A stretch of 62,841 nucleotides of DNA from Anaerolineales bacterium UBA3082. GTDB taxonomy: Bacteria > Chloroflexota > Anaerolineae > UBA7937. The stretch spans positions 1,429 to 64,269 of the forward strand of contig DFBK01000006.1 of the NCBI GenBank assembly GCA_002366595.1, in the 5' to 3' direction. This document shows positions 213-27,991 of this stretch, piece by piece (the first letter of the stretch is position 1; the number at the start of each line of letters is the position of its first letter). The notes beneath the pieces were generated by a model. That model made no database searches, was not told the origin of the DNA, and worked only from the letters and a program-made list of their open reading frames with translations. The position numbers and the translations under genes are program-made.

Positions 213-710
213 ATGATCAGAGTGACGGTGGACAGCATAAAGGTTAGCCTCATTTCCAACCACCGTGTTGTAGTCCTCAAAGACGAGAACACGGAGCGGT
301 ACCTCCCCATCTGGATCGGCCCCTTTGAAGCCGACGCTATCACCATAGGCATGCAATCTCTAGAGATGTCACGCCCTTTAACTCATGACCTCCTCAAATC
401 TCTCATCGATGGGGTAGAGGCTTCCGTCTCCCACATTTTGGTCAACGATTTGAAGGATGATACTTTCTATGCCCAAATCGTCATCGAGTTCAATGGCCAG
501 CATATAGAGATCGACTCCCGCCCCAGCGATGCCATCGCCCTTGCTGTCCGGGCGAAAGCGCCCATCTATGTGGCCGAATCGGTGATGGAGAGGGCGGGTA
601 TCGTGCCCAGCGAGGAGAAGGGAAGCCTCACCCCGGAAGAAGAGGAGAGGCTAGCCCCCTTCCGCGATTTTGTAGATGGCCTCGATCTAGATGATCTTGA
701 TGAGGGGTGA
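213..710 (+). CDS. bifunctional nuclease family protein (BFN/DUF151 type)
   Basis: 165 aa with [14 protein letters not shown] and [20 protein letters not shown] motifs typical of the BFN domain. Stop overlaps the dnaB start. Confidence 0.8.
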
Positions 711-2065: not shown

Positions 2066-2078
2066 CGGCGAATAGGCG

Positions 2079-2825: not shown

Positions 2826-4128
2826 GCGAGAGCCACCGTGTCCTATCTGCGGCGGGCTTGGTTATCTCTATCGAGATGTAGCCCCCGGCCATCCCGATTT
2901 CGGCCGGCCCATCTTATGCCGATGCAAGGAGAAAGAACTGGCGGAGAAGAGGCTCCGGGATCTGCGAAGGGCTGGCAACCTGGGGCTCCTCTCCCGCATG
3001 ACCTTCGAGAGTTTTAAGCCGGAGGGGTACGGCTTACCTCCCCGCCAACGCGAGAACCTAAAAAGGGCTTATGAACTCGCCCAGGAGTTCGCCCGGGAGT
3101 CCAAAGGGTGGCTGGTTCTCAGCGGGGGTTATGGCTGTGGCAAGACCCACTTGGCGGCGGCCATCGCCAACTATCGACTGGAGCAGGGGGAGCCTGTCCT
3201 TTTCGTGGTCGTGCCTGATCTCTTAGATCACCTGCGAGCCACTTTTAGTCCCGATAGCACTGTAGCCTACGATGAGCGGTTCGAGACGGTGCGCACCGCT
3301 CCCCTCTTGATCCTCGACGACCTGGGAACCCAAAGCAGCACCCCTTGGGCGAAGGAGAAACTCTACCAGATAATTAACTACCGGTACAACGCTCAACTCC
3401 CCACAGTGATCACTACCAACCGTCCTCTCGATGAGATCGACGCCCGCTTGCGGTCGCGGATGAGCGACCCCGACCTATGCCAGACCTATCGTATCCAGGC
3501 CCGGGACTTTCGAGCCTCTGGTGGCGAGGGGGACGAGGGACAGAGCATCATCAGCCTCTACGCCGATCAGACCTTCGAGACCTTCGACGCTCATCGCCCT
3601 GAGTTGCCCTCTAACGAGCAGAAGAACCTGCGAAGGGCCTACACTATCGCTAAGGAGTACGCCGAGAAGCCGCAAGGGTGGCTAGTTTTTATGGGGATGT
3701 ACGGTTGTGGTAAGACCCACTTGGCGGCGGCCATCGCCAACTACCTCCACCGCCAAGGGTACCCTGTTCGCTTTGAGGTCGTTCCCGATCTATTGGATCA
3801 TCTGCGGGCCACCTACAGCCCCTCTAGCCCCACCTCCTACGATAAGAGGTTCGAGGCGGTGCGCCATGCGCCGTTTCTCGTCCTCGACGACCTGGGGAGC
3901 CAGAGCGCTACCCCTTGGGCGAGGGAGAAACTCTACCAGATCTTCAACTACCGTTATCAGGCCAAACTTCCCACGGTCATCACTATGCGGGAGTCCCTGG
4001 AGGAGGCCGACCCTTGGCTCGCCTCTCGGATGCTCGACCACTCTCTCTGCACTCTTTACACCATCCTGACGCCGCCATACCGAGGCGGGGTGGTGAGGAA
4101 AGGTCAGAAGAGGGCCAGAAAGCGGTAG
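2716..4128 (+). CDS. DnaC/DnaI-like helicase loader with Cys4 zinc ribbon and two tandem AAA+ modules
   Basis: CPICGG...CRC, followed twice by G(Y/M)YGCGKTHLAAAIANY, VVPDLLDHLRAT, (I/V)LDDLG and EKLYQI.NYRY. The true start is uncertain: the track start is TTG and overlaps the dnaD-like gene by 110 nt. Confidence 0.85.
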   Translation: MSVGLGRGRTTERLEEILKRTGIDTSRESTPTTSSTKREPPCPICGGLGYLYRDVAPGHPDFGRPILCRCKEKELAEKRLRDLRRAGNLGLLSRMTFESFKPEGYGLPPRQRENLKRAYELAQEFARESKGWLVLSGGYGCGKTHLAAAIANYRLEQGEPVLFVVVPDLLDHLRATFSPDSTVAYDERFETVRTAPLLILDDLGTQSSTPWAKEKLYQIINYRYNAQLPTVITTNRPLDEIDARLRSRMSDPDLCQTYRIQARDFRASGGEGDEGQSIISLYADQTFETFDAHRPELPSNEQKNLRRAYTIAKEYAEKPQGWLVFMGMYGCGKTHLAAAIANYLHRQGYPVRFEVVPDLLDHLRATYSPSSPTSYDKRFEAVRHAPFLVLDDLGSQSATPWAREKLYQIFNYRYQAKLPTVITMRESLEEADPWLASRMLDHSLCTLYTILTPPYRGGVVRKGQKRARKR

Positions 4129-4186
4129 TATATCAATAGCAGGTGATCTTTGGGGGACGAGGACTCTCGTCCCCTTTTGGAAGGAG
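4113..4186 (+). repeat. 74-bp direct repeat, copy A (loader 3' end + terminator + SD-like sequence)
   Basis: ggccagaaagcggtagtatatcaatagcaggtgatctttgggggacgagga(c/t)tctcgtccccttttggaaggag recurs at 4965-5038 with one mismatch. Confidence 0.95.
4151..4178 (+). terminator. intrinsic terminator after the loader gene
   Basis: GGGGACGAG / CTCGTCCCC 9-bp stem followed by TTTTGG. Confidence 0.7.
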
Positions 4187-4189
4187 GGG

Positions 4190-4346
4190 CCATAATAGAA
4201 GCGTGGCCCTGTGGAAGAGGTCGGAAAGCCTCCCTCCTTTGAGACGGGTCAAGCCAGAGGATGCCTCCATCGAGGCGGTAAGGGGAGAGGAGGTATGGGA
4301 GGTGGTGGGGAGGGTGTTGACGAATAGGAGTGATCGATTATACTGA
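4190..4346 (+). pseudogene. diverged duplicate of the 3' end of the GT9 glycosyltransferase gene
   Basis: The translated fragment SVALWKRSESLPPLRRVKPEDASIEAVRGEEVWEVVGRVL parallels the C-terminus of the 5041-6144 product, SVALWKGPESLPPLRQVKPEDASIEAVTMEEVYQSVLKVL. No N-terminal part is present. Confidence 0.8.
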
Positions 4347-4946: not shown

Positions 4947-4964
4947 ATAGCCTTAACCAAAGAA

Positions 4965-5038
4965 GGCCAGAAAGCGGTAGTATATCAATAGCAGGTGATC
5001 TTTGGGGGACGAGGATTCTCGTCCCCTTTTGGAAGGAG
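4965..5038 (+). repeat. 74-bp direct repeat, copy B
   Basis: Matches 4113-4186 with one mismatch and includes a second copy of the terminator hairpin (5003-5030). Confidence 0.95.
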
Positions 5039-5040: not shown

Positions 5041-6144
5041 ATGGCGGTTAGGGACGTTTTTGTAGGTCTCAGTTGTCGGCTCCTGGGTCTCCCCTTTCGC
5101 TTGCGGAGTTCTCCTCCCTTTTCACCCCCGCCCCGAGCGATCTTGATTTTGAAGCCTTGCTGTGTGGGAGACATTCTCCTCTCCACCCCTCTTGTGGCCA
5201 CCATACGGAGGGCCTACCCCCAGGCGCGTCTCGACTATGCGGTGGGCCCCTGGTCCCGCCCTATCTTGGAGACCAACCCCCATCTGGACAATCTTGTCGA
5301 TTGCGGACGGGTGGGGAGCGGGCGGTACGGTTGGAGCGATTACTGGGCGCTGGTCCAACGGTTGCGAGCCGGGGAGTACGAGGCCTGCTTCGTCTTGGAG
5401 CGCTCTCCCTTGATCAGCCTCCTCCCCTATCTAGCCGGCATCCCCCACCGAGTGGGGCTAGATAGCGATGGGCGGGGCTTCTCTTTGACCATCCGCGTGC
5501 CGGTAAAGGGTATAAAACATGAGGCGGAACTCTACCTTGACACCGCCCGGGCGGTAGGGATCGCAGTCGAGCGTGCAGCCTTGGAATTCTACCCTCGACC
5601 TCAGGAGCAAGAGCGAGCCCAAGCGCTATTAGACAAAGCCCACCCCCTGGTGGCCATCCATCCCGCTGGGGGCCGGAACCCGGGGATGTACCTCCCCGTC
5701 AAGCGTTGGCCCCCGGAGCGGTTCGCCGCGGTCGCCGATAGGGTAATCGAAAACCTGGGAGGCTCGGTGGTGCTCCTCGGAGGCCCGGGGGATGAAGGGG
5801 TAGCGGGCGCGGTGAACGAGCGTATGACCAACGAGCCCCTGGACTTGACCGGCCGACTGACCTGGGGGGAGACCGGAGCCGTCTTGGAGAAGTGCGACCT
5901 CTGCCTGGGGAACGACACGGGGGCTCTGCACCTGGCGGTGGCGGTGGGGACGCCCGTGGTGGCCATCTTCGGCCCCTCCGACCCCCGCATCTACGGCCCC
6001 TACGATAAGAGAAGCGTAGCCCTGTGGAAGGGGCCAGAAAGCCTACCTCCTTTGAGGCAGGTCAAGCCAGAGGACGCCTCCATCGAGGCAGTGACGATGG
6101 AGGAGGTTTATCAGTCGGTTCTCAAAGTTCTAGGTCGGGAATGA
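5041..6144 (+). CDS. glycosyltransferase family 9 (heptosyltransferase-like)
   Basis: ILILKPCCVGDILLSTPL, HPAGGRNP..KRWP.ERF, LLGGPGD and LGNDTGALHLAVAVGTPVVAIFGPSDP are GT9 hallmarks. The start is moved to ATG 5041 because the track start at 5002 runs through the terminator hairpin. Confidence 0.85.
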   Translation: MAVRDVFVGLSCRLLGLPFRLRSSPPFSPPPRAILILKPCCVGDILLSTPLVATIRRAYPQARLDYAVGPWSRPILETNPHLDNLVDCGRVGSGRYGWSDYWALVQRLRAGEYEACFVLERSPLISLLPYLAGIPHRVGLDSDGRGFSLTIRVPVKGIKHEAELYLDTARAVGIAVERAALEFYPRPQEQERAQALLDKAHPLVAIHPAGGRNPGMYLPVKRWPPERFAAVADRVIENLGGSVVLLGGPGDEGVAGAVNERMTNEPLDLTGRLTWGETGAVLEKCDLCLGNDTGALHLAVAVGTPVVAIFGPSDPRIYGPYDKRSVALWKGPESLPPLRQVKPEDASIEAVTMEEVYQSVLKVLGRE

Positions 6145-7479: not shown

Positions 7480-7550
7480 CTTAGGGAAAAGAATCCGCTA
7501 TGCTAGAGCAAGGAAGTATAGTCAGTCGGGCTGGTAGGCTACGGCCGGGG

Positions 7551-7717
7551 GATAGCGGACGGTGACGGGCAATCGCCCTAGCATCGCCTCGTTCTTCACC
7601 AACTTGCAAGCGCCCATGCCCTGGGGGCGCAAAATCCGCCTGCTCCTGCGCAATAACTCTGTCAAAATTGGCAGTAGGTAGGGCAGGTTTCCATACCTGC
7701 CCCCTGAATCTTCTGCG
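7551..7717 (+). repeat. ~165-bp interspersed repeat, copy R1 (full length)
   Basis: Shares ...ctagcatcgcctc.ttcttcaccaacttgcaagcgcccatgccc.tggggcgcaa..tccgc.tgctc.tgcgcaa.aactctgtcaaaattggcagta.gtagggcaggtttccatacctgc.cctgaatcttctgcg with R2-R4. Contains the hairpin GGGCAGGT-ttccat-ACCTGCCC. Confidence 0.9.
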
Positions 7718-7785
7718 ACAGGGGCAAGAGAGGCCATTTCCTCTCAAGCCTTTGTTCAGGATACTTTCAAACATTGGAGGTAAAT

Positions 7786-8421
7786 ATGAGAAAAAGCGAG
7801 ATAATAATCCTGGGGATAATAGTGGTTTCTTTCCTCATCGGAATGTACTTCTATCCCCGGATGCCAGGGGCAATCGCCTCTCACTGGAATATCAGAGGAG
7901 AAGTCGATGGCTACATGTCAAAATTCTGGGGTTTGTTTCTGATGCCAGTTATTTCTGTTGGATTGTTGTTGCTTTTTGTCCTGATACCTAAGATAGACCC
8001 TTTGAAGGCCAATATCGAGAAATTCAGGAACTATTACGATGGGTTTATATTAGTAGTGATTGTGTTTCTGTTCTACCTCTACCTCTTGACCATTCTCTGG
8101 AATATGGGCCTAAGATTCGATATGATCCAACTGCTGGCACCCGCTTGCGGAATACTCTTATACTGCTGTGGAATTCTAATAGAGAACGCGAAAAGGAACT
8201 GGTTCATTGGAATCAGAACACCTTGGACTTTGAGCAGTGAAGAAGTATGGGAGAAAACCCATAAGATCGGTGGGAGGCTGTTCAAGATTAGTGGGGTAAT
8301 CGCTCTTCTTGGAGTGTTGTTCCGCGACTACGCCCTGTTCTTCATCCTCGTGCCCGCTATTTTGATTGCCGTTTATACAACCGTTTACTCATACTTTGAG
8401 TACCAAAAAGAGACAAGATGA
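7786..8421 (+). CDS. SdpI/YhfL-family membrane protein with DUF1648-like N-terminus
   Basis: PRMPGAIASHWNIRGEVDGY (DUF1648-like) followed by NWFIGIRTPWTLSSEEVWEKTH (SdpI signature). Multi-pass membrane protein. ATG 7786 is preceded by ggagg. Confidence 0.75.
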   Translation: MRKSEIIILGIIVVSFLIGMYFYPRMPGAIASHWNIRGEVDGYMSKFWGLFLMPVISVGLLLLFVLIPKIDPLKANIEKFRNYYDGFILVVIVFLFYLYLLTILWNMGLRFDMIQLLAPACGILLYCCGILIENAKRNWFIGIRTPWTLSSEEVWEKTHKIGGRLFKISGVIALLGVLFRDYALFFILVPAILIAVYTTVYSYFEYQKETR

Positions 8422-8433
8422 GAGCCAACCGAC

Positions 8434-8572
8434 CAAGCATCTCCTCATTTTTCACCAACTTGCAAGCGCCTATGCCCTTGGGGCGCAAGGTCCGCTTGCT
8501 CTTGCGCAACAACTCTGTCAAAATTGGCAGTAAGTAGGGCAGGTTTCCATACCTGCACCTGAATCTTCTGCG
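8434..8572 (+). repeat. interspersed repeat, copy R2 (5'-truncated)
   Basis: Aligns to R1 from ~7580 to its end, including the hairpin. Confidence 0.9.
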
Positions 8573-8594
8573 GCTTTGCAGGGTCGGGGCCGGA

Positions 8595-8663
8595 GATAGC
8601 GAACGGTGACGGGCAATCGACCTAGCATCACCTCATTCTTCACCAACCTGCAAGTGCCCATGG
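8595..8663 (+). repeat. interspersed repeat, copy R3 (5' ~70 nt only)
   Basis: gatagcgaacggtgacgggcaatcgacctagcatcacctcattcttcaccaacctgcaagtgcccatgg aligns to the first part of R1. Confidence 0.85.
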
Positions 8664-8722: not shown

Positions 8723-9211
8723 GTGGAGAAGAACAGACTAATCGAGATCGCAAGACTGGTAGCCAGCATAATCATTTGCCAGGGGGCGGGTTTGGTTGGC
8801 TCGATTTTCACCACACCCGCCATCCCCACCTGGTACGCAGCCCTGAGAAAGCCATCTTTCAGCCCTCCCAATTGGTTGTTTGCCCCAGTTTGGATTACCC
8901 TCTTTGCGCTCATGGGGGTATCGGCGTTCCTTGTGTGGCGCAAGGGGCTAGGTGATCCCCAGGTCAGAATCGTTCTAGCTATCTTCGTAATCCAATTGAT
9001 TTTGAACACCACGTGGTCGGTGGTATTCTTCGGACTCAGGTCCCCCCTTGGAGGGCTTATTGTCATCGCGGTTCTCTGGGTCGCGATATTGTTGACTATC
9101 CTCAACTTCTTCAAGATATCAACGACAGCGGGGATAGTTCTCATACCTTACATCCTATGGGTGAGTTTCGCTGCCGTCCTCAACCTCTTCATCTGGAGGC
9201 TCAATAGTTGA
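8723..9211 (+). CDS. tspO: TspO/MBR family tryptophan-rich sensory protein
   Basis: WYAALRKPSFSPPNWLFAPVWITLFALMG, NTTWSVVFFGL and PYILWVSFAAVLN are typical TspO motifs. GTG start 8 nt after aaggagg. Confidence 0.88.
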   Translation: MEKNRLIEIARLVASIIICQGAGLVGSIFTTPAIPTWYAALRKPSFSPPNWLFAPVWITLFALMGVSAFLVWRKGLGDPQVRIVLAIFVIQLILNTTWSVVFFGLRSPLGGLIVIAVLWVAILLTILNFFKISTTAGIVLIPYILWVSFAAVLNLFIWRLNS

Positions 9212-9274
9212 GGTTGTGGAGCGTACATGCTAAGTATCTAGAATCTTCTAGGGCCGCTACGCTCGGACCTGGGG

Positions 9275-9381
9275 CTAGCGAATGGTGACGAGCCATCGGT
9301 CTAGCATCGCCTCATTCTTCACCAACTTGCAAGCGCCCATGCCCTTGGGGCGCAAGGTCCGCTTGCTTTTGCGCAACAACT
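9275..9381 (+). repeat. interspersed repeat, copy R4 (first ~107 nt)
   Basis: ctagcgaatggtgacg...ctagcatcgcctcattcttcaccaacttgcaagcgcccatgcccttggggcgcaaggtccgcttgcttttgcgcaacaac. Confidence 0.9.
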
Positions 9382-9713
9382 GGATCAAAATCCGACGACA
9401 GACCAACTGCTGTGGACACCACGGAGAGCCTGGGCCGAAGACGCGGCGAAGGATCGATAGATCGATCGCCTGCCCTGCCCGGGCTCTCCACTGAAATCTT
9501 ATCATCTCCCACAACATCTATCAATGGGAAGATGGTACCATTTCTTGGGCGATAATCGTGATGAGGGGCAGCGCATGAGAATCGGAGGCGACCAACGATG
9601 AACCTCTGCACCATCATCTGGGCCAGTAACAATTCCCAAATCCGGCTGAACCCTCTGCAGCAGGCCGACAAGGGGCCACCACTGATGCCGGAATCCATCG
9701 AGGGAGTAGGCTT

Positions 9714-10004
9714 ATGCCAGCAAAGATTAGCGTAAGCAAAAAGGAGGAGATTACTACTGGATGGGTTTTCGAAGTGGCTATCTCCGAGCGGGGGAGTGAA
9801 ACGGTCCACACGGTTACGCTGAGTAAGACAGACTATGAGCGGCTAACCGAGGGAAAGGCCCCGCCCGAAAGCCTGATAGAGCGCTCCTTTGAGTTCCTTC
9901 TCCAACGGGAGCCCAAAGAATCGATCCTGCGCCGCTTTGACCTCACCAAGATCGGCTTCTACTTCCCCGAATACGAGCGGGAGATCCGCCAGAGGCTCGG
10001 CTAG
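9714..10004 (+). CDS. small hypothetical protein
   Basis: 96-aa ORF with plausible coding composition. No recognisable motif. Confidence 0.45.
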   Translation: MPAKISVSKKEEITTGWVFEVAISERGSETVHTVTLSKTDYERLTEGKAPPESLIERSFEFLLQREPKESILRRFDLTKIGFYFPEYEREIRQRLG

Positions 10005-11687: not shown

Positions 11688-12797
11688 TTAGAGGTTGAGA
11701 GCATCCCTTATCCTATTCAAGAACCCCTTCTCGCTCTGGGGGATGACCTCTTTGCCCAGGCTCTTGGACAATCGCTTGAGGAGTTCTCGCTGTTCCTCGG
11801 TGAGGTTGGTGGGGGTGACCACATAGACGGTAACCAACTGGTCGCCACGGCCATCGCCTCTCAGGTGGGGGATACCCCTATTTTTTAGCCTGAAGGTCTC
11901 GCCCGTCTGGGTGCCCGCGGGGATGGCGAGGGTAGTCGTGCCCTCCAAGGTGGGCACCTCCACCTCATCGCCCAGGGCAGCCTGGGCTATATTGATGGGC
12001 AACTCCAGGAAGATGTTGGAGTCTTGCCGCTTGAAATAGCGATGCCTCTTGACTGAGAGGTGCACATAGAGGTTTCCGGGCGGCCCACCCCATAAGCCCG
12101 CTTCTCCCTCCCCATCCAGGCGGAGTCGGACTCCGGAATCAACGCCTGCGGGGGTAGTCACCTCTAGCGTCTTAGTGACGCGGACGCGCCTATCCCCTCG
12201 GCACTCCCCACAGGCGGTGACCACCACTTCCCCCTCCCCGTGGCAGCGAGGGCAGGTGGTCATACTGACGAAGGAGCCGAACAAAGACTGGCGGACATGG
12301 CGCACCTGACCTGTGCCCTGGCACTCGGGGCACCTTATGGGCTCCGTGCCCGGCTCAGCGCCGGTGCCGTGGCAGCGGGGGCAGGTATCCAAGCGGGAGA
12401 CCTCTATCTCCTTCTCGCAGCCGAAAACCGCCTCCTCGAACTCCAAGGTAAGGTCATAGCGGAGGTCCGAGCCCCGCTGAGCGCGGGCCCGGGGACCGCG
12501 AGGCCGCATCCCGAAGCCGAAGAAGTCCTCGAATATATCGCTCAAGCCGCCGAAGCCCATGTCGCCGAAGCCACCCATATCCGCGCGGCCGAAGCGGTCG
12601 TAGTTGGCCCGCTTCTGGGGGTCGTTTAGCACCTGGTAGGCCTCGTTTATCTCCTTGAAGCGGGCCTCGGCATTGGGGGATTTGTTCACATCAGGGTGGT
12701 ACTGGCGGGCCAGGTGGCGATAAGCCCGCTTTATATCATCTTGCGCGGCGTTCCGAGGGACGCCCAATATCTCGTAGAAATCGCGTCTAGCGCTCAT
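11688..12797 (-). CDS. dnaJ: molecular chaperone DnaJ
   Basis: J domain (DFYEILGVPRNA...YHPD), G/F region and four CxxCxGxG zinc-finger repeats. Confidence 0.97.
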   Translation of the reverse strand: MSARRDFYEILGVPRNAAQDDIKRAYRHLARQYHPDVNKSPNAEARFKEINEAYQVLNDPQKRANYDRFGRADMGGFGDMGFGGLSDIFEDFFGFGMRPRGPRARAQRGSDLRYDLTLEFEEAVFGCEKEIEVSRLDTCPRCHGTGAEPGTEPIRCPECQGTGQVRHVRQSLFGSFVSMTTCPRCHGEGEVVVTACGECRGDRRVRVTKTLEVTTPAGVDSGVRLRLDGEGEAGLWGGPPGNLYVHLSVKRHRYFKRQDSNIFLELPINIAQAALGDEVEVPTLEGTTTLAIPAGTQTGETFRLKNRGIPHLRGDGRGDQLVTVYVVTPTNLTEEQRELLKRLSKSLGKEVIPQSEKGFLNRIRDALNL

Positions 12798-12834
12798 AGG
12801 CCAGTTAATAAATCTAGTTCTTTAAGAGGGAGCC

Positions 12835-13074
12835 TCACGCTTCGCGGTAGGCTTCCAAGAACTCGTCTCTCGAGATCCTTGCCTGGGTGCAGATGGCTCG
12901 TAGCGTTGAGCCTTTTATCTTGGGGTGATTAGGCATGGTTAGCGGCGTTTGGGTGCCGTCGGGGTTCTCATGCACCATAGAGATATGTTCCTTTTCACGA
13001 ACCAATCGGAAGCCGAGGTGTCTCAGGGCTTTGACCACCTTTCGCCTTGGTGCATCCACTGGCCATTTGGCCAT
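12835..13074 (-). CDS. hicA: HicA-family toxin (YcfA-like)
   Basis: 79 aa. KALRHLGFRLVRE..HISM...LTMPNHPKIKGSTLRAI pattern. Start overlaps the stop of the upstream HicB-like gene. Confidence 0.7.
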   Translation of the reverse strand: MAKWPVDAPRRKVVKALRHLGFRLVREKEHISMVHENPDGTQTPLTMPNHPKIKGSTLRAICTQARISRDEFLEAYREA

Positions 13075-13298
13075 TAGATAGACACCCCTGTCTCGGCAAC
13101 AAAGGCTTCAATGACTGGTGAGTCGGTCTCAAGAACCTCTTCGCCGAAGGTCTCAATATGAAAACGGATGGCCGATTTCACATCAGCCAGAGCCTCTTCG
13201 TAAGTATTCCCCTGGCCGACGACAACCCCTTTCAGTCCCAGCGGATATGCTATGTAGCCATCGGAATGTTTTTCAACCACTACCTTGAACTGTCGCAC
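13074..13298 (-). CDS. hicB: HicB-family antitoxin (UPF0150-like)
   Basis: 74 aa. FKVVVEKHSDGYIAYPLGLKGVVVGQGNTYEEALADVKSAIRFHIE is the typical UPF0150/HicB fold signature. Confidence 0.7.
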   Translation of the reverse strand: MRQFKVVVEKHSDGYIAYPLGLKGVVVGQGNTYEEALADVKSAIRFHIETFGEEVLETDSPVIEAFVAETGVSI

Positions 13299-13313
13299 CG
13301 TAGTATCCTCCTC

Positions 13314-13514
13314 TCAACGCTCTTGCTCAATCTCACTAATGGCTTGATCGAAGGGGATGGCTTCGTCCTTTGCTGCCTTGGCAGCATCATAGGCGCGGAT
13401 CGATTCCAGTTCCTCCAACTCCTCTGGTAACCTCTGATACTCATCTATACCGAGAAGCACCCCTACCCGTTTTCCCTTCTCATCAATTATGTATTTTCCG
13501 TTAAGAGAAGCCAT
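13314..13514 (-). CDS. Phd/RelB-like small antitoxin without an adjacent cognate toxin
   Basis: 66 aa. YIIDEKGKRVGVLLGIDEYQRLPEELEELESIRAYDAAKA...IPFDQAISEIE resembles antitoxins normally paired with RelE/ParE toxins. Confidence 0.55.
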   Translation of the reverse strand: MASLNGKYIIDEKGKRVGVLLGIDEYQRLPEELEELESIRAYDAAKAAKDEAIPFDQAISEIEQER

Positions 13515-13710
13515 GGTCTATCTCCTCTAACACATATTATATGCGAGGTTCAGTTGATATTCCTCTCATATCCAATCCTACCGCGACTGGGTTTTACCGG
13601 CTGAAGCCTCCAATCCTCTTCACGTTTCCGTAGCGGCGCCCTTCAGGGCGACGATCTTCCCCGTCAGGCTAAAGCCCCTGGCCCACATCAGCCAGGACAG
13701 GCCGACGCTA

Positions 13711-13753
13711 CTGAAGCCTCGATTCCATTGTAACACTAGGGATTGGAACCTTT
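13711..13753. repeat. ~43-bp repeat U, copy 1
   Basis: ctgaagcctcgattccattgtaacactagggattggaaccttt. Recurs at 14657-14699 and 14829-14870. Confidence 0.9.
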
Positions 13754-13796
13754 CCCACAGGGATCCTGTAAGGATAGGCGGACCTCCTATTCACAT

Positions 13797-13821
13797 GATA
13801 ATCGCATCTAGCGCTCATAGG
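13797..13821 (-). repeat. duplicated dnaJ 5'-end fragment, copy 1
   Basis: atcgcatctagcgctcatagg matches the genuine dnaJ start region atcgcgtctagcgctcatagg (12780-12800), including the start codon. Confidence 0.85.
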
Positions 13822-13876
13822 TCAACTGACCGATTCACGCAACAGCGTAACGCCGCCTCGATCATGTTGGCGCTGC

Positions 13877-14116
13877 TCAAGGGATATCTATGAATTCAGC
13901 AAAGGCTTGCGGCTCAGGAACAGGTAGGTTGTCTCCCCACAATCCTCGTACGTGCATTTCGACGGCTTCTTGCATGTTGCGCTTGACTTCCTCACGGGTT
14001 TTGCCCGTCGCCACACAACCGGGCGGGTCAGACGAGTACACCGAGTAGTTTCCATTTGCCTTTTCAACCACAATCAGAAAACGATACATAGGGAGTTGTT
14101 TCAAAGTTTCTCCCAC
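13877..14116 (-). CDS. HicB-like (UPF0150) antitoxin-type protein
   Basis: YRFLIVVEKANGNYSVYSSDPPGCVATGKTREEVKRNMQEAVEMHV. The start may be the internal Met at 14089. Confidence 0.65.
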   Translation of the reverse strand: MGETLKQLPMYRFLIVVEKANGNYSVYSSDPPGCVATGKTREEVKRNMQEAVEMHVRGLWGDNLPVPEPQAFAEFIDIP

Positions 14117-14322
14117 ACTTCTCTTTTGATTTCGGCCTGCTTTAGAATTCTGGAAAGCAACTCTTTTCCGATGTCTTTTTGGTGAGGGTTGGGAATGCGC
14201 AGAGTGATATCACCCTTGACCATAAATTGGTGCTTGCCTCCAGCATAAGGGCCTTCAAAGCCCAGTTCTCTCAGGTATCGAATCAAGTCTCCTCGCTTTA
14301 TGGGCCCAAAACGAGGCATCAA
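14101..14322 (-). CDS. hicA: HicA-family toxin
   Basis: 73 aa. LIRYLRELGFEGPYAGGKHQFMVKGDITLRIPNPHQKDIGKELLSRILKQA is a classic HicA pattern. Confidence 0.8.
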   Translation of the reverse strand: MMPRFGPIKRGDLIRYLRELGFEGPYAGGKHQFMVKGDITLRIPNPHQKDIGKELLSRILKQAEIKREVWEKL

Positions 14323-14561
14323 ACAACTTCCTTGATGGTCAACTCGATGCCATCAACGACTGGCAAGGGCAGGTTGCGCGATATTCGGAAAAGTATCCAG
14401 GCTTCTAAAGCCTCTTCCAATTCGTCGCGACATGCTTCAAGGGTGCTGGCATTAGCATAGATACCCTGGAAGCCATGGATTTCGCCGTAGAAGGTATTAT
14501 CATCGGGAAGGATTTCATACCTGGCCTTTTGCATCGCCGCACGGATATATCTGGTTAACAT
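14319..14561 (-). CDS. hicB: HicB-family antitoxin
   Basis: 80 aa. YIRAAMQKARYEILPDDNTFYGEIHGFQGIYANASTLEACRDELEEALEAWIL pattern. Overlaps the hicA start by 4 nt. Confidence 0.7.
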   Translation of the reverse strand: MLTRYIRAAMQKARYEILPDDNTFYGEIHGFQGIYANASTLEACRDELEEALEAWILFRISRNLPLPVVDGIELTIKEVV

Positions 14562-14656
14562 ATTGATGCCTCCTCAAGAACACCACTATCATTATATGCG
14601 AAGTTCAATTTATGTTCCTCTTATCTCCAACTCTACCGGGAGTGGTGTTTTGCCGG

Positions 14657-14699
14657 CTGAAGCCTCGATTCCATTGCAATCCGAGGGATTGAAGCCTTT
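14657..14699. repeat. repeat U, copy 2
   Basis: ctgaagcctcgattccattgcaatccgagggattgaagccttt. Confidence 0.85.
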
Positions 14700-14717
14700 A
14701 GGCGGAACTTCTATCCT

Positions 14718-14762
14718 GGGAACGCCCAGTATCTCGTAGAAATCGCGTCTAGCGCTCATAGG
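14718..14762 (-). repeat. duplicated dnaJ 5'-end fragment, copy 2 (45 bp)
   Basis: gggaacgcccagtatctcgtagaaatcgcgtctagcgctcatagg versus genuine gggacgcccaatatctcgtagaaatcgcgtctagcgctcatagg (12757-12800). Confidence 0.92.
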
Positions 14763-14828
14763 CTAACTGGTTAGTGTTTGCCGGCTGTCCTTACAGGATC
14801 CCTGTCCCGCAGGGATCCCGAGGGATGG

Positions 14829-14870
14829 GAAAGCCTCGATTCCATTGTAACACTAGGGATTGGAGCCTTT
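14829..14870. repeat. repeat U, copy 3
   Basis: gaaagcctcgattccattgtaacactagggattggagccttt. Confidence 0.9.
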
Positions 14871-14886
14871 AGGCGGAACTTCTACC

Positions 14887-14908
14887 AGAAATCGCGTCTA
14901 GCGCTCAT
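14887..14908 (-). repeat. duplicated dnaJ 5'-end fragment, copy 3
   Basis: agaaatcgcgtctagcgctcat is identical to 12776-12797. Confidence 0.9.
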
Positions 14909-14937
14909 GAATTATTAACCGACCATAGTTCAACTAC

Positions 14938-16374
14938 TTAGCCACTGGAAGAGGCCGGCAAGGCGAGTTCGTATCGGCCTATGACTTCCTGTTTGTCAAA
15001 AAGATATGCGTTCTTAGTAGCGGTATTTACCAGCAAGAGAGCGTGCGGAATCACTTTTAAGAGTTCATAACTAGCTAGCCGATGAATCGGGGAGTCGGTT
15101 TTCCTATTCATGCATATCACAGCCATGTGAGGCCCGGTTTCCCAGGTCGAGATGATGTCCTTCTTGAAGCTACCCGAAGTCTCAACCTCAATTGCTGCAA
15201 ACACATCACCGTCGGCGTCTAGCCAAACGCAGTCAACTCGGGAGCCCTTGACAGAGTATTCGGTCATCGGCACAAACCCAGACTCCGATCCTATGCGTGC
15301 CAGGGCCTTGATGTAGCGCTTATGATCGTCACCCTGTTCCATTCGACAGTATGTTTCTAGGCTAGTCATAATCCGCCTGACCAAGGCATTGATGTCGCCC
15401 TCTATCTCCCTATCATATGCATATTCGAAGATTCGACCCTCGTCTATGACGATCAGATCGACCCCGCCTTTCAGATACTCGACTACCTTTGAGTCTGTTC
15501 GTTGCTTGGAACCCAGGGGCGGATGTACTGATATGAGCACGCGAGCTTTGTCAAGGAGTACAAATCCGCGCCACCACTCCCCTAGAACGTAGGAGATGTC
15601 GGGATCAGCCTCCCGAAGCAATTGCACAACGAGAGCGAGGCGCCACTTGCAGTAGTTCTCCCCGTGTTGATACCCCGGTGTCAGACTTGGAATGGGCCCA
15701 TACTTGCAAGCGACTCGTTCGATGTCAGAGCGACAACCTTCGCAGCAAAAGTATAGATAGGTTGTGGTTCTTCTTACGGGGATGCTTGGGAGGTCATGCA
15801 GTGCCTCGGACGGATGATCTCTCGTACGCTCTTGCTTGGTAAGCCTAATTGCACTCTGAAGCAACTCCTTTTCGGGGTTCAAGAAACTCAGGTGTGCACA
15901 AGAATCTATTCCGCCATCAAATTCTTTGAAAACCTCTTGGAGTCCAAGTTCGCGGAGCAGCCTTGGCTCAACCGCAAGGGGAACTTGGTAGAAATGTGGC
16001 ACGCCCGCGTCTACCTTTCTGGTTCCAGACATCCATCCTCCAGGCAGATTCGCTAGCCGGGCAAGCACAGGCACCCTCTCCGCTGTCTTGATCCATATGT
16101 CACTTGAGGCCGTCTCTTTGATAATCGAAAAGACCTTATGCGTTCTAAGAAAAGCAATGGCCTTTCGCGCCACTTCCAGCTGCTGGTCGTCCAAGTTGTA
16201 GCTCAGCCGCTTGTCAAATGGTGCGTCACATAACTTGCAAAGTTCCTTAGGCACCCCATCTTGACTTATGCGCTTTCCTGTTGCCCGTTCCAATGCTGGG
16301 TACTTTTTCACAAGTTGGATTATCTCAGTTCTATCCATCGTTTCCTCTGAAGCGCTTTGGTTGTTCCTTGTCAA
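14938..16374 (-). CDS. uncharacterised 478-aa protein with a PD-(D/E)xK-like C-terminal region
   Basis: Long ORF with GC lower than its flanks. Cys clusters CKLCD and CCEGC...C. The C-terminal GSRVDCVWLDADGDVFAAIEVETSGSFKKD resembles a restriction-endonuclease-fold D...ExE...K core. Confidence 0.6.
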   Translation of the reverse strand: MTRNNQSASEETMDRTEIIQLVKKYPALERATGKRISQDGVPKELCKLCDAPFDKRLSYNLDDQQLEVARKAIAFLRTHKVFSIIKETASSDIWIKTAERVPVLARLANLPGGWMSGTRKVDAGVPHFYQVPLAVEPRLLRELGLQEVFKEFDGGIDSCAHLSFLNPEKELLQSAIRLTKQERTRDHPSEALHDLPSIPVRRTTTYLYFCCEGCRSDIERVACKYGPIPSLTPGYQHGENYCKWRLALVVQLLREADPDISYVLGEWWRGFVLLDKARVLISVHPPLGSKQRTDSKVVEYLKGGVDLIVIDEGRIFEYAYDREIEGDINALVRRIMTSLETYCRMEQGDDHKRYIKALARIGSESGFVPMTEYSVKGSRVDCVWLDADGDVFAAIEVETSGSFKKDIISTWETGPHMAVICMNRKTDSPIHRLASYELLKVIPHALLLVNTATKNAYLFDKQEVIGRYELALPASSSG

Positions 16375-16411
16375 TAGGCGTCATAGAGCGTGGACCGGTG
16401 GTGCAAAATGC

Positions 16412-17398
16412 TTAGATGCGCATTGAAATGGCTGCGTCGATACTCTGACAGATGAAATCAGTGGTGTCCAACGGCAGAGGACGTGTCGCCCTCGGATTTC
16501 GCCACAAACTCGACTGGTATCGCTGGCTTCCGGATCTTCTCCACTTGGAGGCAAACACAACCGCCGAAAGTGATGGATGTAAACCACGCCTAACTTCTCT
16601 ATCCAGATAACTTGTAGCTTCGGGGAACTCGGTATCTTCTTTAGCGTGGCTCTCGCTAAAGAGTACAAGAAGATTAATCTCATTCGGGATGGCCTGTCGC
16701 AGTTTTCCCTCGATCTTGGAACGTAGCCCCTCCTCATGGTGTGGATAGCCAACGAGCTTCGAATGGTATGCTCGCAGCAGTTCCGTCACATGGGTGTCTT
16801 CGCGAAGGCGCGTGACCTCTACAAACATTCGCTTTTCGGCAAAGTCAACTCGCTGGTCAGGTCCGGCCGCCCCGCAAGGACGGAACACCACCGCCGAGTC
16901 TGGTGTGGCAAAACCAAGCGTGACCTTGCCCTCAAAGAAATGATCTAGGAATCCCTGTTCATCGCCAATGGAGTTTCCTAAGTCGCGAAGATACGCGGGT
17001 ATACCTTCTATCGAGGCCTTGAGAAGATTCTCTTCCATCCGTTGCATCCTCACACACTGACCCAACATGAGAATTCCACGCGCAATATGGTCCTCCCCGT
17101 TCAAATCAAGCAACTCCTTGAAGAGACGATGTTGTTTTAGTCGCTGAACACTCCAACCAAAGTCTGGATGTGCTACAAGAGCTGTCCCTAGTTTGGCTTG
17201 GCGGTTCTGGTCGCTAATGACCACTGCCAGCCAGGCCTCTCGTGACTCCGTGTCTAGGTCAGGGCAAGCTCCACAGGCTGCTGAGAAATTCCGATACGTT
17301 TGCAAGGTGTCTAATAGATGAAGGCAAGTCTTAAGTTCACGTGGCGGCTGCGTACAAATAAACTTCTTGAACCGTGTAAAAGAATTATGCCCGGCCAT
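16412..17398 (-). CDS. uncharacterised 328-aa protein, first gene of a two-gene module
   Basis: Intact ORF 37 nt upstream of 14938-16374 on the same strand. No motif recognised beyond a possible GPDQRVDF...VEVTRL acidic core. Confidence 0.55.
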   Translation of the reverse strand: MAGHNSFTRFKKFICTQPPRELKTCLHLLDTLQTYRNFSAACGACPDLDTESREAWLAVVISDQNRQAKLGTALVAHPDFGWSVQRLKQHRLFKELLDLNGEDHIARGILMLGQCVRMQRMEENLLKASIEGIPAYLRDLGNSIGDEQGFLDHFFEGKVTLGFATPDSAVVFRPCGAAGPDQRVDFAEKRMFVEVTRLREDTHVTELLRAYHSKLVGYPHHEEGLRSKIEGKLRQAIPNEINLLVLFSESHAKEDTEFPEATSYLDREVRRGLHPSLSAVVFASKWRRSGSQRYQSSLWRNPRATRPLPLDTTDFICQSIDAAISMRI

Positions 17399-17419
17399 GA
17401 GTTGACCTACAATAGCGCA

Positions 17420-17446
17420 GGGGCGAGGGCCTAAGGCCCCCGCCCC
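17420..17446. other. GC-rich stem-loop between dnaK and the inserted module
   Basis: ggggcgagggcc-taa-ggcccccgcccc. The T-rich tract is only on the plus-strand side, so terminator function for dnaK (minus strand) is doubtful. Confidence 0.4.
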
Positions 17447-17452
17447 TTGTGT

Positions 17453-20997: not shown

Positions 20998-21024
20998 TTA
21001 GCACTCTCTTGATTAGAGTGCTAA
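20998..21024. promoter_or_regulatory. CIRCE operator (HrcA binding site)
   Basis: Perfect TTAGCACTC-N9-GAGTGCTAA inverted repeat 20 nt upstream of the hrcA start. Confidence 0.95.
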
Positions 21025-25651: not shown

Positions 25652-27991
25652 CTACTGGCGATAGATCACGTTGAGGGATGCTAGGAGGAGGGGTGAGGGT
25701 CGAAGTTCTTTACCCTGGGCGTCTCTAAACCGGAGCAGGAGTCGGTATCTCCCTGGAGGCGATGAGGGGATGAGGAGGTAGTGCTGGTCCCGCACGATCT
25801 CCTCTTGCTTCCAGGCGGTAGAGGGGTATCCTCCCTCTACCGGGGAGGTCTCTCGCCTAGTTACGGTCTCTCCTCGGGAGTCCGTCAATTCTATCGTCAG
25901 TAGGATCTCGGATTTTGGTTTCTCCCTGGCTTGCCAGAAGAGGGTCAGGTGTAAGGTGTCTCCTGGACGGAGCAGCGCTTGAGGGTCATGCTCGAAGCCT
26001 AGTTTCGATAGGTTGTAGCCCAGGAGCCTCAAGGGGCCAAAGTCGATCTCCAGGCGATGCTCCATCTGGAGGGCCTCTAGGGGAGGCGGGGTTTTGGGCT
26101 TTAGGACCCGAATAGGCGGGAGGAGGATGCGGTTGTCTGGCGCTTCTCTCCCTTCTTTTGTAGGTAGCCGCTCGCCGGAGCGAAGGCTATACATGCCCAT
26201 CTCCACCCTGTATTCTCCCGGCGGCGTGCCGGGCAGGATGAGGAGCCCATGGTTGTCGGCTATTATCTCCCCCTCTTGCCAAGTAGTGGTTATCCTGGCG
26301 CCCCCTCCGGGTTCCGCATCTCTTTGCCCCACGATATGGTCTTGGGTGTCGAGGAGGTGGATGAAGACCTTATACCGCTCCTCCACCGGCTCCAAGGCCT
26401 CCCAAAAGAGGGTGAGGGGTAAGATGTCGCCAGCCTCCACCTCCGAATTCAATAGGTTATAACCCAGAAATCGGATCCGGTCTCCCAAGAGAACCTCCCT
26501 GGGGTATTTTATCTCCTCGGAGGGGGTGGCTTTGGGGGTGGCATATAGGGCCAGACGAACGTTCCCATACCAGAGATCCAAGGCCTTGAAAGCCCGTCTA
26601 TCAAGCCACCCCTCTATGAAACGATCTGGGTCGCTTTCCTGAGTGGCCCAGAAGAGGGCGAAAAGGCGGGGGTGTTTGTCCGCTATCTCCTCCAGGGCTC
26701 GCTCGGTCTTTCTCTCATCGAGGGGCCGCTCTCCTGGAAGGGGGTAGATGGAGAGCGGGCCTTCATAATAATAGGAGAAGATGTCGATCTGGCCGGGGGC
26801 GTTGAGGAGGATGGCGTCCCCATCCTTGCTAGTGGCGGCGATATATTGAACCAGGCCACGATAATCATCCTTGGCATATTGGGGGTTGAAAAAGTAGTCG
26901 TGGAGAGAGAAACCGCTGGCCAAGGTCACAAAGAGGAGCAGGATGCCGCTAACCAGGTTACGGTTACGCTCCATCCAGACCCCGCTCACCCCCCTGGCCA
27001 AGAGGAGGAGGTAACCTGGCGTGGCTAAGAGAAGGAGTTTGGGTCTATATAGGGGGCGACTCAGGGAGAGGAGGTACATGACCAGGGGTGGGAGGAGAAG
27101 ATAGGTAAGGGCAAAGGCGATGGCGTAGCCCTCGTTTCTGCCTTTTTGGGGGATCAGCCCAAAAAGGGCGATGACCAAGAAGCCGATGAGTAAAGGGTCC
27201 ATCTGGGCGAAGAGACCGAGGCTGAAGATGCGCAAGACCTCTTGAGCGAGGAAATCGAGGCCTATAGGCTGGCTGATAGCCGGCCAGGTGCGAAGTTGCT
27301 CCCTAGCGAAGTTGAGCCAGGGGAGATAGAGCAGGATGACCAAGAGTTGGCTCAGGCTCCAGAGGGTAAGGGCACGCCATTTGCGGGCGGAAGGGGTGAG
27401 GAGGAGCCAAAGAGCGTAGGCCACGTTAGCCACTAGAAAGATGGTGAAGGCGAAGTAATGGGTGTAGAGGGCCGAGGTGATGAAGAAGGTGTAAAAAGCG
27501 AGAGTCGGCCAGAGGCTAGCCGCATGTTCCTCCCCCGTCGCCCTGGCGAACTTGAGAAAGAGAAAGAGAGAGATGGCTCCCAGAAGGGCCACGAGGATAT
27601 ACATCCTCGTCTCTTGGGAGTAGTAGACCTGAAAGGGGGAGATGGCGGCGAGGAAGGAGGCGACTAAAGCCACCCTATTATCGAAAAGGGCTATCCCCAA
27701 TAGATAGGTGAAAGAGACGAGAAGGAAACCGCAGAGAGCCGAGAGGGAGCGCACCGCTATTTCGCTACTCCCAAAGAGGCGAACCCAGAAATGGAGGAGG
27801 TAGTAGTAGAGAGGGGGGTGGATATCGTGGGCCGCGTCCCGGGCGATGGTAGCGAGATCGCGCTGGGCCAGAGTCACGCTAACCCCCTCATCAGACCAGA
27901 GGCTCTGGCCATCGAGTCGGAAGGAACGAAGGGCGAAGGCCAGGAAAAGGATGGCGCACAAAAGGGCTAGATTTACCTTGGACGAGGCCAT
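25652..27991 (-). CDS. GT-C fold glycosyltransferase (family 39/ArnT-PMT-like) with repeated C-terminal extracytoplasmic modules
   Basis: SLWSDEGVSV...HDIHPPLYYYLLHFW...AVRSLSALCG plus ~11 TM helices. The C-terminus has repeated ~105-aa modules (LLGYNL...LTLFW.A...Y.VFIHLLD...GQRD..PGGG...T..W.EGE...D). Confidence 0.85.
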   Translation of the reverse strand: MASSKVNLALLCAILFLAFALRSFRLDGQSLWSDEGVSVTLAQRDLATIARDAAHDIHPPLYYYLLHFWVRLFGSSEIAVRSLSALCGFLLVSFTYLLGIALFDNRVALVASFLAAISPFQVYYSQETRMYILVALLGAISLFLFLKFARATGEEHAASLWPTLAFYTFFITSALYTHYFAFTIFLVANVAYALWLLLTPSARKWRALTLWSLSQLLVILLYLPWLNFAREQLRTWPAISQPIGLDFLAQEVLRIFSLGLFAQMDPLLIGFLVIALFGLIPQKGRNEGYAIAFALTYLLLPPLVMYLLSLSRPLYRPKLLLLATPGYLLLLARGVSGVWMERNRNLVSGILLLFVTLASGFSLHDYFFNPQYAKDDYRGLVQYIAATSKDGDAILLNAPGQIDIFSYYYEGPLSIYPLPGERPLDERKTERALEEIADKHPRLFALFWATQESDPDRFIEGWLDRRAFKALDLWYGNVRLALYATPKATPSEEIKYPREVLLGDRIRFLGYNLLNSEVEAGDILPLTLFWEALEPVEERYKVFIHLLDTQDHIVGQRDAEPGGGARITTTWQEGEIIADNHGLLILPGTPPGEYRVEMGMYSLRSGERLPTKEGREAPDNRILLPPIRVLKPKTPPPLEALQMEHRLEIDFGPLRLLGYNLSKLGFEHDPQALLRPGDTLHLTLFWQAREKPKSEILLTIELTDSRGETVTRRETSPVEGGYPSTAWKQEEIVRDQHYLLIPSSPPGRYRLLLRFRDAQGKELRPSPLLLASLNVIYRQ

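Follow-up and report, generated by a model that had tools for sequence, protein, structure and literature searches.

The spacer between dnaK and dnaJ in Anaerolineales bacterium UBA3082, an uncultured member of the Anaerolineae, is occupied by accessory DNA in which the 5' end of dnaJ is reiterated, and comparison with relatives shows that such reiterated dnaJ heads are the regular signature of an insertion hotspot in this clade, not a peculiarity of a single genome. The whole stretch analyzed, of 62,841 nucleotides (nt), is referred to here as the window, and its own array as WIN; a dead partial copy of the dnaJ 5' end is called a stub or relic, and nt are counted from the dnaJ ATG. Our tentative reading, held with slightly less than even confidence, is that the spacer is a recombination hotspot built by serial 'head-replacement' insertions, without a recombinase encoded by the inserted elements.

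A perfect CIRCE operator (controlling inverted repeat of chaperone expression), adjoined by a TTGACA-N17-TATCAT promoter-like site, lies upstream of hrcA, and the genes concerned therefore form a classical HrcA-controlled heat-shock operon (Table 1). As an earlier note on this DNA had described, dnaK and dnaJ are here separated by ~4.6 kb of accessory DNA, every cargo gene of which is on the operon strand; the guanine-plus-cytosine (GC) content of this insert is 0.48-0.53, versus 0.56-0.65 in the flanks. In gene orientation, the array runs from dnaK through a hairpin and two genes, A and B, to stub c, which is followed by a short 'link' plus a repeat termed U, a nested palindrome, a short leader and stub b. 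Link, U, leader and a TATAAT box then precede a HicB-HicA-HicB' cassette and stub a, after which come a variant link (link') plus U, GTAGCG-type hairpins, a partial U, a leader and TATAAT, a Phd-ORF74-HicA cassette (ORF, open reading frame), the motif that precedes the dnaJ start, and dnaJ itself. Thus, every unit closes with a dnaJ head, and most open with a conserved ~125-nt module that extends from YAGRAGKY to TATAAT.

The sequence GAAATCGCGTCTAGCGCTCAT occurs four times in the window, namely, at 12777-12797 (the real dnaJ start), 13798-13818 (with 3 mismatches), 14739-14759 and 14888-14908, none of which is expected by chance, and the three extra dnaJ starts reported in the earlier note are therefore real. 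The long copy at 14714-14763 is 92% identical to 12752-12801, and the repeated head includes ~14 nt before the ATG that form a degenerate palindrome, GCCARTTARCCY. Among all 20 copies of the dnaJ start compared, ATGAGCGCTAGACGCGATT is almost invariant; by manual count, the stub core (first 22 nt) is not significantly better conserved than the stub remainder (~4% vs ~7% mismatches). Across arrays, the stubs end at nine distinct positions (dnaJ nt 22, 27, 28, 40, 46, 64, 85, 88 and 150), so there is no single crossover point. Joints at nt 22 are found in WIN and in two relatives (L022 and L011), each followed by GG(T), and because the downstream sequence is related in all three, they may represent one inherited event. 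The joint of nt 150 to a Phd cassette leader shows 4-5 nt of microhomology (GAGA/G), as read from the sequences at this one left joint only, whereas microhomology is not evident at the joints with the constant module end described below. Two of the stubs in the window also give rise to short ORFs: stub b opens a chimeric 49-aa ORF (MSARRDFYEILGVPR..., 14610-14759, minus strand) that reads through the U repeat and is annotated as a gene in L038, and stub c yields an 8-codon ORF that stops at the TAG of the link.

The structure of the insert is genuine, and mis-assembly, which the earlier note had named as something that would overturn its interpretation, does not explain it. An independent Joint Genome Institute (JGI) contig spans the entire array and is 100% identical over 11 kb, and the 'stub-GG-TAGRAGTT-U' junction recurs, with 92% identity, in a different organism (L022). 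The window is also matched at 100% identity by two Logan assemblies, made from other sequencing runs, as far as the U repeat, where their contigs end. Such breaks in short-read assemblies could be taken as a sign of collapsed or chimeric repeats, but with the complete array covered by an independent contig, and homologous junctions present in other organisms and samples, an assembly artefact is extremely improbable.

Relatives were found via contigs encoding the closest DnaJ proteins and via a metagenome scan for link plus U, and these two routes yielded eight more versions of the locus. The proteins that best match DnaJ are metagenomic and unnamed, and those with a name come from Anaerolineae/Chloroflexi metagenome-assembled genomes. 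The flanks are common (GT2-GT2-Bac_transf-hrcA-grpE-dnaK on one side, dnaJ-prmA-rsmE on the other), and between them every examined relative whose DnaJ is 79-90% identical carries different cargo, which implies a long-lived hotspot. Five related arrays (L009, L011, L019, L022 and L026/L010) hold one to three further dnaJ-start relics each. In order, and with stubs designated by the dnaJ nt at which they end, L019 contains a trypsin-like gene, stub 40, U, a stub, a Tricorn/PD40-like gene, stub 85, the module with HicBAB, stub 150 and a promoter-Phd-ParE cassette, L009 representing a right-hand part of the same type. L026/L010 has a restriction endonuclease-like protein of 116 aa, stub 27, a TPR protein, stub 88, a Tricorn-like gene, the module with a ClpP-like gene and the module with a leader; L011 has a ClpP-like gene, ORFs of 67 and 259 aa, stub 22, an ORF of 278 aa, stub 64, the module and a Tricorn-like gene; and L022 has ORFs of 168 and 82 aa, stub 22, the module and a HicB-like gene. 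Simpler states are represented by L007/L008, with one 386-aa protein of no known family and no stubs; by L012, with another such ORF; and by L036, where a truncated homologue of gene A and a homologue of gene B directly abut dnaJ.

Cassette order is shuffled between relatives, as seen for the Tricorn-like and ClpP-like cassettes in L026 versus L011, and the L022 unit is a mosaic whose left part resembles WIN c and whose right part resembles WIN a. The window and L036 have one and the same junction of the 3' flank of gene B with the ATG, followed by a 22-nt stub in the former and by a functional dnaJ in the latter, as expected if later cassettes had entered the head of an ancestor with the order dnaK-A-B-dnaJ. 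Further away, L032 (DnaJ 67% identical) has an unoccupied dnaK-dnaJ spacer of 246 nt, and L034/L035, from another Anaerolineae lineage (DnaJ 67% identical), have a DUF2283 gene between dnaK and dnaJ, together with a DUF1156 methylase and HindIII-like restriction endonuclease pair (368-3666) between a 59-aa C-terminal GrpE fragment and dnaK. With L034/L035 included, the heat-shock operon is an insertion hotspot that bears relics of gene ends in at least two lineages. The earlier note had regarded the gap as an insertion hotspot and the extra dnaJ starts as scars of repeated insertions, each of which restored an intact dnaJ, and both views are upheld by the cargo and relics of the relatives. An unoccupied junction of the kind that it had proposed to look for does exist, as the spacer of L032, and repeat-free or single-gene states occur in L007 and L036.

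Homologous recombination within dnaJ demonstrably moves arrays between genetic backgrounds. For dnaJ nt 1-360, plus the upstream array, mismatches amount to 0 between L026 and L010 and 10 between L009 and L019, versus 37 between L009 and L026, 34 between L019 and L010, and 34-37 for other pairs. For dnaJ nt 361-915, the same comparisons give 32 and 31, versus 3, 2, and 30-33, respectively. The contrast for L009 and L026 around dnaJ nt 350 is highly significant (Fisher p = 4e-12), and the breakpoint of this four-gamete pattern lies inside dnaJ, near nt 350-380. Array and dnaJ head therefore travel as a block, and homologous recombination joins this block to the dnaJ body. One sample (ERZ27247703) yielded both L009 and L010, whose arrays are paired with different dnaJ-body haplotypes; alternative arrays thus occur there side by side. 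The other source samples are JGI 3300001749, SRR5324181 and SRR1313318. An exchange of the dnaJ head between more distant lineages is hinted at by L011, whose first 110 nt of dnaJ are 90-92% identical to those of L007 and L012, as opposed to 70-78% further on (p ~0.002).

Recombinase, integrase or transposase domains were not detected with Pfam in 18 cargo proteins (8 + 10) or in 36 other ORFs of the window, which encode DnaB, DnaD-like and DnaC-like proteins, glycosyltransferases, PMT_2 paralogues, c-di-GMP enzymes and Tad pilus proteins. Phage contigs scanned for the dnaJ core and for U gave no match, so no phage vehicle emerged. The statement of the earlier note that the window lacks an integrase thus holds for the ORFs tested and extends to the cargo of every relative, but the integrase-type integration that it had envisaged, into a fixed att-like site at the dnaJ start, is at odds with relic lengths that differ from joint to joint (22 to 150 nt).

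The copies of the U repeat at 13714-13747 and 14831-14864 are identical to each other, a further copy lies at 14660-14713 and a fourth, partial one (copy d) at 13597-13616, and within the window U is confined to the array. The scan of metagenomes with link plus U matched 19 loci, of which 16 are unrelated intergenic sites without a dnaJ fragment. U is a generic dispersed hairpin repeat, not an att arm. The repeats and the adjoining aggcgga(a/c)cttcta had been correctly located in the earlier note, as had the homology between the regions upstream of the two toxin-antitoxin (TA) cassettes, which are 80-83% identical (13536-13595 versus 14591-14650), yet its proposal of U plus aggcggaacttcta as an att composite does not survive the finding of U at loci unrelated to dnaJ. 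At these same 16 loci, where dnaJ-start copies might have betrayed a generic repeat, there are none.

Generic U has the form TA-CCGCCTAAAGGCTCCATTCC-loop-GGAATCGAGGCTTCAGCCGG, a 45-50-nt imperfect palindrome often nested with other small hairpin repeats, and such copies form a long hairpin with mismatches at regular intervals (-21 kcal/mol, z = -3.2 and -2.4). Those in the window, in contrast, are degenerate and fold no better than shuffled sequence (z = -0.4 and +0.9). The nesting of a small repeat inside U is also seen in the generic copies of L023 and L030, and a hairpin repeat, GGGCAGGTTTCCATACCTGCCC, is common to the window and two generic U loci, which ties these loci to related genomes. 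Within dnaJ arrays, U is represented by a locus-specific subfamily that has eight extra conserved nucleotides on the left (aggcggaacttcta region) and a conserved leader plus TATAAT on the right; unlike generic U, this 8-nt link and leader are restricted to dnaJ arrays. The same ~125-nt module precedes HicBAB in L009 and L019 as well, and the ClpP-like cassette in L026. A scan of GTDB for U gave six matches, all of them chance occurrences inside HD-domain coding sequence, and Rfam, both at the gathering threshold and at E <= 1, returned no family for U, leader or stubs in 12600-15000. Three other identities were considered and discarded: a CRISPR-like repeat (clustered regularly interspaced short palindromic repeats), suggested by an end that resembles ...GGGATTGGAAC but contradicted by single, dispersed copies without array periodicity or cas genes; an integron attC site, given the lack of an R'' box and of intI; and a Xer/dif-like site at the box TTCGCATATAAT, whose resemblance to a XerC arm is limited to the first 8 nt.

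Under the head-replacement model, incoming DNA from a relative would consist of a cassette followed by a dnaJ 5' end. Its right-hand crossover would be ordinary homologous recombination in the conserved dnaJ body, and its left-hand joint would be non-homologous, sometimes falling inside the resident dnaJ head. The old head (~-14 to +22...150) would be stranded upstream as a dead stub, with an intact dnaJ rebuilt from donor sequence, and since each event would rebuild dnaJ in this manner, the newest cassette should adjoin dnaJ and the oldest should adjoin dnaK. Stubs and the hairpin/promoter-like module could then act as portable homology for cassette swap, deletion and reshuffling between strains. 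The model would explain why stub lengths vary, why head and cassette co-vary, why recombinase genes are lacking, why units are mosaic and why no stub stands to the left of the first cassette.

Several observations weigh against this model. The left end of the module lies at the identical nucleotide (YAGRAGKY/CCGCC) at five or six different joints, that is, behind dnaJ nt 22, 28, 46, 64 and 85 and also behind the 3' flanks of two unrelated cassettes. Random illegitimate joining does not predict this constancy, which looks like the defined end of an element or a site where breaks are preferred. The dnaJ repeat likewise has a sharp left edge, at ~-14 within motif GCCARTTARCCY, after many different cassettes, and all stubs keep at least nt 1-22, which is compatible with a core site, even if 10 joints are not statistically compelling. 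Moreover, recent movement is not apparent: the divergence of shared cassettes is about that of the backbone, and no variation in the window's own array was found across three datasets, all 100% identical. The constant module end and the sharp -14 edge keep alive both a trans-acting enzyme and a hairpin-directed break or transposition.

The enzyme in question would be a tyrosine, serine or Xer-like recombinase encoded elsewhere in the genome, acting site-specifically on a dnaJ core of -14..+22, an alternative we consider doubtful though far from negligible. The cassettes would then be integrase-less units mobilised in trans, like cis-mobilizable elements (CIMEs), psi-SCC elements (SCC, staphylococcal cassette chromosome) or pdif modules, and the longer stubs would be dnaJ-derived sequence in cassette arms or the result of later rearrangements. 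The near-invariance of ATGAGCGCTAGACGCGATT, the shortest stubs, which end at nt 22 and then GG(T) in three arrays, and the sharp edges, both at the degenerate palindrome and on the cassette-side module, speak for such a recombinase, as does the existence, also within the Chloroflexota, of tandem ssrA islands in Dehalococcoides, some of which lack an integrase (PMC3146451). The nine stub-end positions speak against it, as do the possible single origin of the nt-22 joints, a core whose conservation does not significantly exceed that of the remaining stub sequence, an exchanged dnaJ segment that reaches ~nt 350, far past any core, and the failure to find a recombinase in the 62.8 kb (ORFs tested) or in any cargo. 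If this alternative were true, a circular cassette junction would be composed of the cassette end plus ATGAGCGC...module start. The link-U-leader-TATAAT module could itself be the active part, either as a one-ended (rolling-circle/HUH-type) element, as an element like a miniature inverted-repeat transposable element (MITE), or as a hairpin-induced break site, its defined left end being repeatedly joined to nearby DNA with downstream genes dragged along. The constancy of that end would follow, generic U is dispersed and folds well, small repeats are lodged precisely where the body of U meets its CAGCCGG tail, and one module heads three unrelated cargos (HicBAB, Phd-x and ClpP-like). We nevertheless regard this as improbable, given that the window copies of U are degenerate (z ~0), that no transposase or HUH protein was found in the cargo and window ORFs tested, that the 8-nt link and leader are confined to dnaJ arrays, and that neither a defined right end nor a target duplication is visible.

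An even smaller chance is given to local tandem duplication of 'upstream module + dnaJ head', with erosion of the upstream copies and replacement of the cargo of each unit. The units do share a layout of module, cargo and dnaJ head, 'empty' units exist (14760-14884 in the window and the last unit of L026), and deletion derivatives are evident in the leader, which is truncated in L009/L019 and short at 14760-14787. However, many independent duplications and separate cargo replacements would be needed, and the co-variation of head and cassette, the recombination with the dnaJ body and the lower GC content of the cargo would go unexplained. It is also conceivable, though on balance unlikely, that the locus is a gene-capture platform in the heat-shock operon, integron-like in function but differently built. 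Its cassettes would have a hairpin-plus-promoter module with a nucleotide-exact end as their 5' boundary and a portable dnaJ start (-14..+22 core) as their 3' boundary, and a putative trans-acting Chloroflexota enzyme would move them. Genes for toxin-antitoxin systems, peptidases and defence would in this way come under transcription linked to HrcA/CIRCE.

With respect to dnaJ itself, a sequence scan found no terminator-like site in the 38 nt between HicA and dnaJ. Because of this, and because the hairpin after dnaK has no T-tract and the cargo is co-oriented, dnaJ is probably read through from the promoter-like TATAAT box of the last cassette (13536-13541) and/or from the CIRCE-controlled operon promoter. 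The conserved TATAAT boxes are not called by a sigma-70 consensus scan, TTGAAC being just 6 nt upstream, and their promoter role is therefore unproven. Whether recombination alone or an enzyme has built the array, the expression of dnaJ would now depend on foreign upstream cassettes.

The content of the gap had been described in the earlier note as two HicAB-type cassettes plus a two-gene module of unknown function, and this description is supported by Pfam (PF07927, E = 2.5e-11 and 4.4e-12; PF21748, E = 2.9e-30; PF15919, E = 1.5e-8). HicA adjoins HicB/UPF0150, as in type II HicAB toxin-antitoxin systems, while the 74-aa partner of the second HicA has no significant match. The HicB-HicA-HicB block (13877-14561) has an 88% identical counterpart in L019 and L009, and the promoter-Phd part of the 12835-13514 cassette is 89% identical to the Phd-ParE cassette of the same two relatives. 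Genes A and B have no Pfam, PADLOC or PDB sequence matches; no homologue of gene A other than itself was found among 5.8 billion proteins, and five homologues of gene B were found, one of which directly abuts dnaJ in L036. The AlphaFold models of both proteins are poor (predicted local distance difference test scores of 41 and 56), and Foldseek returned for the gene B model weak restriction endonuclease-like matches only (best E = 0.012), a weak hint that gene B may have such a fold. At 1-660 of L036, the homologue of gene A is cut to its 3' part, with an unrelated reverse-strand partial ORF upstream; this ORF has no Pfam match, and its identity as an IS transposase could not be confirmed. That the A homologue is truncated while B stands implies that A decays independently of B in this module. 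Other cargo is related to peptidases, namely, ClpP-like (PF00574), trypsin-like (PF13365) and Tricorn_N/PD40 membrane proteins in L019, L026/L010 and L011. It matches, thematically, a proteostasis operon, and hints at functional recruitment.

Table 1. Coordinates of the heat-shock operon and of the dnaK-dnaJ array in the window.
Feature	Position	Strand	Remarks
CIRCE operator (TTAGCACTC-N9-GAGTGCTAA)	20998-21024	-	Upstream of hrcA; 0 mismatches, 0 expected by chance
hrcA	20978-19950	-	Pfam HrcA (this or syntenic gene)
grpE	19926-19363	-	Pfam GrpE (this or syntenic gene)
dnaK	19339-17453	-	Pfam HSP70 (this or syntenic gene)
GC-rich hairpin, no T-tract	17420-17446	-	Directly after dnaK stop; conserved left edge of variable region in relatives
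Gene A, 328 aa	16412-17398	-	No Pfam or PADLOC match
Gene B, 478 aa (466 aa from ATG)	14938-16374	-	No Pfam or PADLOC match
Relic (stub) c, dnaJ nt 1-22	14887-14908	-	B-flank/ATG junction same as at real dnaJ in L036
Link + U copy c (TAGAAGTT + CCGCCTAAAGG...GGAATCGAGGCTT)	14831-14884	-	Start of 'empty' unit
Nested GGGATCCC-type palindromic repeat	14788-14830	-	Between U body and CAGCCGG tail
Relic (stub) b, upstream motif CCAGTTAGCCT + dnaJ nt 1-46	14714-14773	-	Opens chimeric 49-aa ORF
~125-nt module: link + U copy b + leader + TATAAT box	14591-14713	-	Before HicB-HicA-HicB cassette
UPF0150/HicB	14561-14319	-	Pfam
HicA, first cassette	14322-14101	-	Pfam
HicB-like	14116-13877	-	Pfam
Relic (stub) a, motif GGTCAGTTGACCT + dnaJ nt 1-21/28, degenerate	13791-13832	-	Sequence comparison
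Link' + U copy a (22-nt nested insertion) + GTAGCG-type hairpins + partial U d + leader + TATAAT (13536-13541)	13536-13790	-	
Phd/RelB-like	13514-13314	-	Second cassette
74-aa ORF, at HicB position	13298-13074	-	Without significant Pfam match
HicA, second cassette	13074-12835	-	Pfam
dnaJ, intact, 369 aa, all DnaJ domains	12797-11688	-	With 14-nt upstream motif, 11688-12811
prmA	11663-10800	-	Downstream of dnaJ
rsmE	10781-10011	-	Downstream of prmA

Other repeats and genes of the window may be recorded here. Three copies of a 100-140-nt repeat (7527-7703, 8419-8662 and 9250-9426; 72-87% identical, no Rfam match), the first two of which contain the hairpin repeat GGGCAGGTTTCCATACCTGCCC, lie ~60-290 nt upstream of plus-strand genes for an SdpI-like protein (7774-8421), TspO (8723-9211) and a 96-aa ORF (9714-10004), and look like a shared leader or promoter for consecutive small genes. 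A 79-nt repeat that contains a GC hairpin (4108-4186 versus 4960-5038, 97% identical) and a 103-nt repeat (4192-4294 versus 6005-6107, 85% identical) flank a GT9 glycosyltransferase gene together with a small, low-GC ORF for a membrane protein, and this region may be another small insertion bounded by duplicated sequence. A c-di-GMP-I-GGC riboswitch (48933-49013, plus strand; 71 bits, above the gathering score) is found upstream of a GAF/HD-GYP-type protein (49139-51040), with a GAF-GGDEF protein next (51168-53015). On the minus strand, 25652-41776 is a run of large ORFs (779, 568, 944, 681, 637 and 1009 aa) with repeated segments shared along the run, all three of those tested (779, 944 and 1009 aa) having PMT_2 domains. 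Lastly, a 470-aa protein (2716-4128, plus strand) consists of two tandem IstB/DnaC-like ATPase modules, with an internal 300-nt repeat that is 73% identical, and adjoins a DnaB helicase and a DnaD-like protein.

How the dnaJ array compares with known systems depends on which of its features is considered. In the arrays of SCCmec and psi-SCC at rlmH, and in dusA elements, the incoming element rebuilds the end of a housekeeping gene, and tandem accretion and recombinase-less members are known; dusA-specific integrative elements target the 5' end of the gene. In all of these, the crossover is fixed, the direct repeats are short and constant, and there is a cognate Ccr or tyrosine integrase. The dnaJ array resembles their logic, with a 5'-end target as in dusA, and differs in having no fixed crossover. 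Like integrons and clusters of attC sites lacking integron-integrases (CALIN), it contains small, co-oriented, TA-rich cassettes with imperfect-palindrome separators, whose order is shuffled between relatives. Unlike them, its boundaries are host gene fragments and many of its cassettes carry their own promoter-like box. No Phage_integrase match was found among the window ORFs tested, nor intI, and inspection revealed no R''/R' (RYYYAAC/GTTRRRY) pair, some generic U copies ending in GTTAAGT without a left RYYYAAC. In turn, U is like repetitive extragenic palindromes and their mosaic elements (REP/BIME), or foldback MITEs, in being dispersed and clustered or nested with other hairpin repeats, and it differs in its dnaJ-array subfamily with extra conserved flanks; neither a transposase nor a REP-associated tyrosine transposase (RAYT) partner was found in the window ORFs tested.

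Within the Chloroflexota, the nearest precedent is found in Dehalococcoides, whose tandem ssrA islands are large, repeat a fixed 20-bp copy of an RNA gene's 3' end and encode a CcrB-like serine recombinase (DsiB), with some units lacking the integration module (McMurdie et al., 2011; PMC3146451). The dnaJ array shares with them serial insertion beside a single-copy essential gene, gene-end direct repeats and strain-specific content. It departs from them in its variable-length repeats of the 5' end of a protein gene, in units of 0.15-2.5 kb and in that no recombinase was found. Homology-facilitated illegitimate recombination and transformation-generated merodiploidy have been shown experimentally in competent model bacteria. 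In these processes, as proposed for the dnaJ array, one end is anchored by homology and the other joined without it, and partial duplications can arise when donor repeats pair alternately (PMC3240628; PMC3784515). At the dnaJ locus, by comparison, such a process is inferred only from scars, and it does not predict the constant left end of the module.

Of what characterizes att elements, a regenerated target and unoccupied relatives are present at the dnaJ locus, whereas its repeats are not of constant length and no cognate recombinase was found in the cargo proteins and window ORFs tested. A literature search found no description of an insertion hotspot linked to dnaJ. The dnaJ locus departs from the defining features of the ssrA-island, SCC/dusA and integron classes, and the class that suits it best is that of chromosomal insertion hotspots with target-end repeats. 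An array built by recombination alone would be a natural example of a conserved gene serving as a homology anchor, dragging accessory genes across strains with no need for mobile-element machinery. Should the sharp module ends be the work of an enzyme, the Chloroflexota would possess a cassette system that has so far escaped recognition. The usual setting described for insertion hotspots is beside tRNA or tmRNA genes, or between core genes; the dnaJ hotspot sits in one of the most conserved bacterial operons, uses the 5' end of a chaperone gene and leaves a readable stack of scars.

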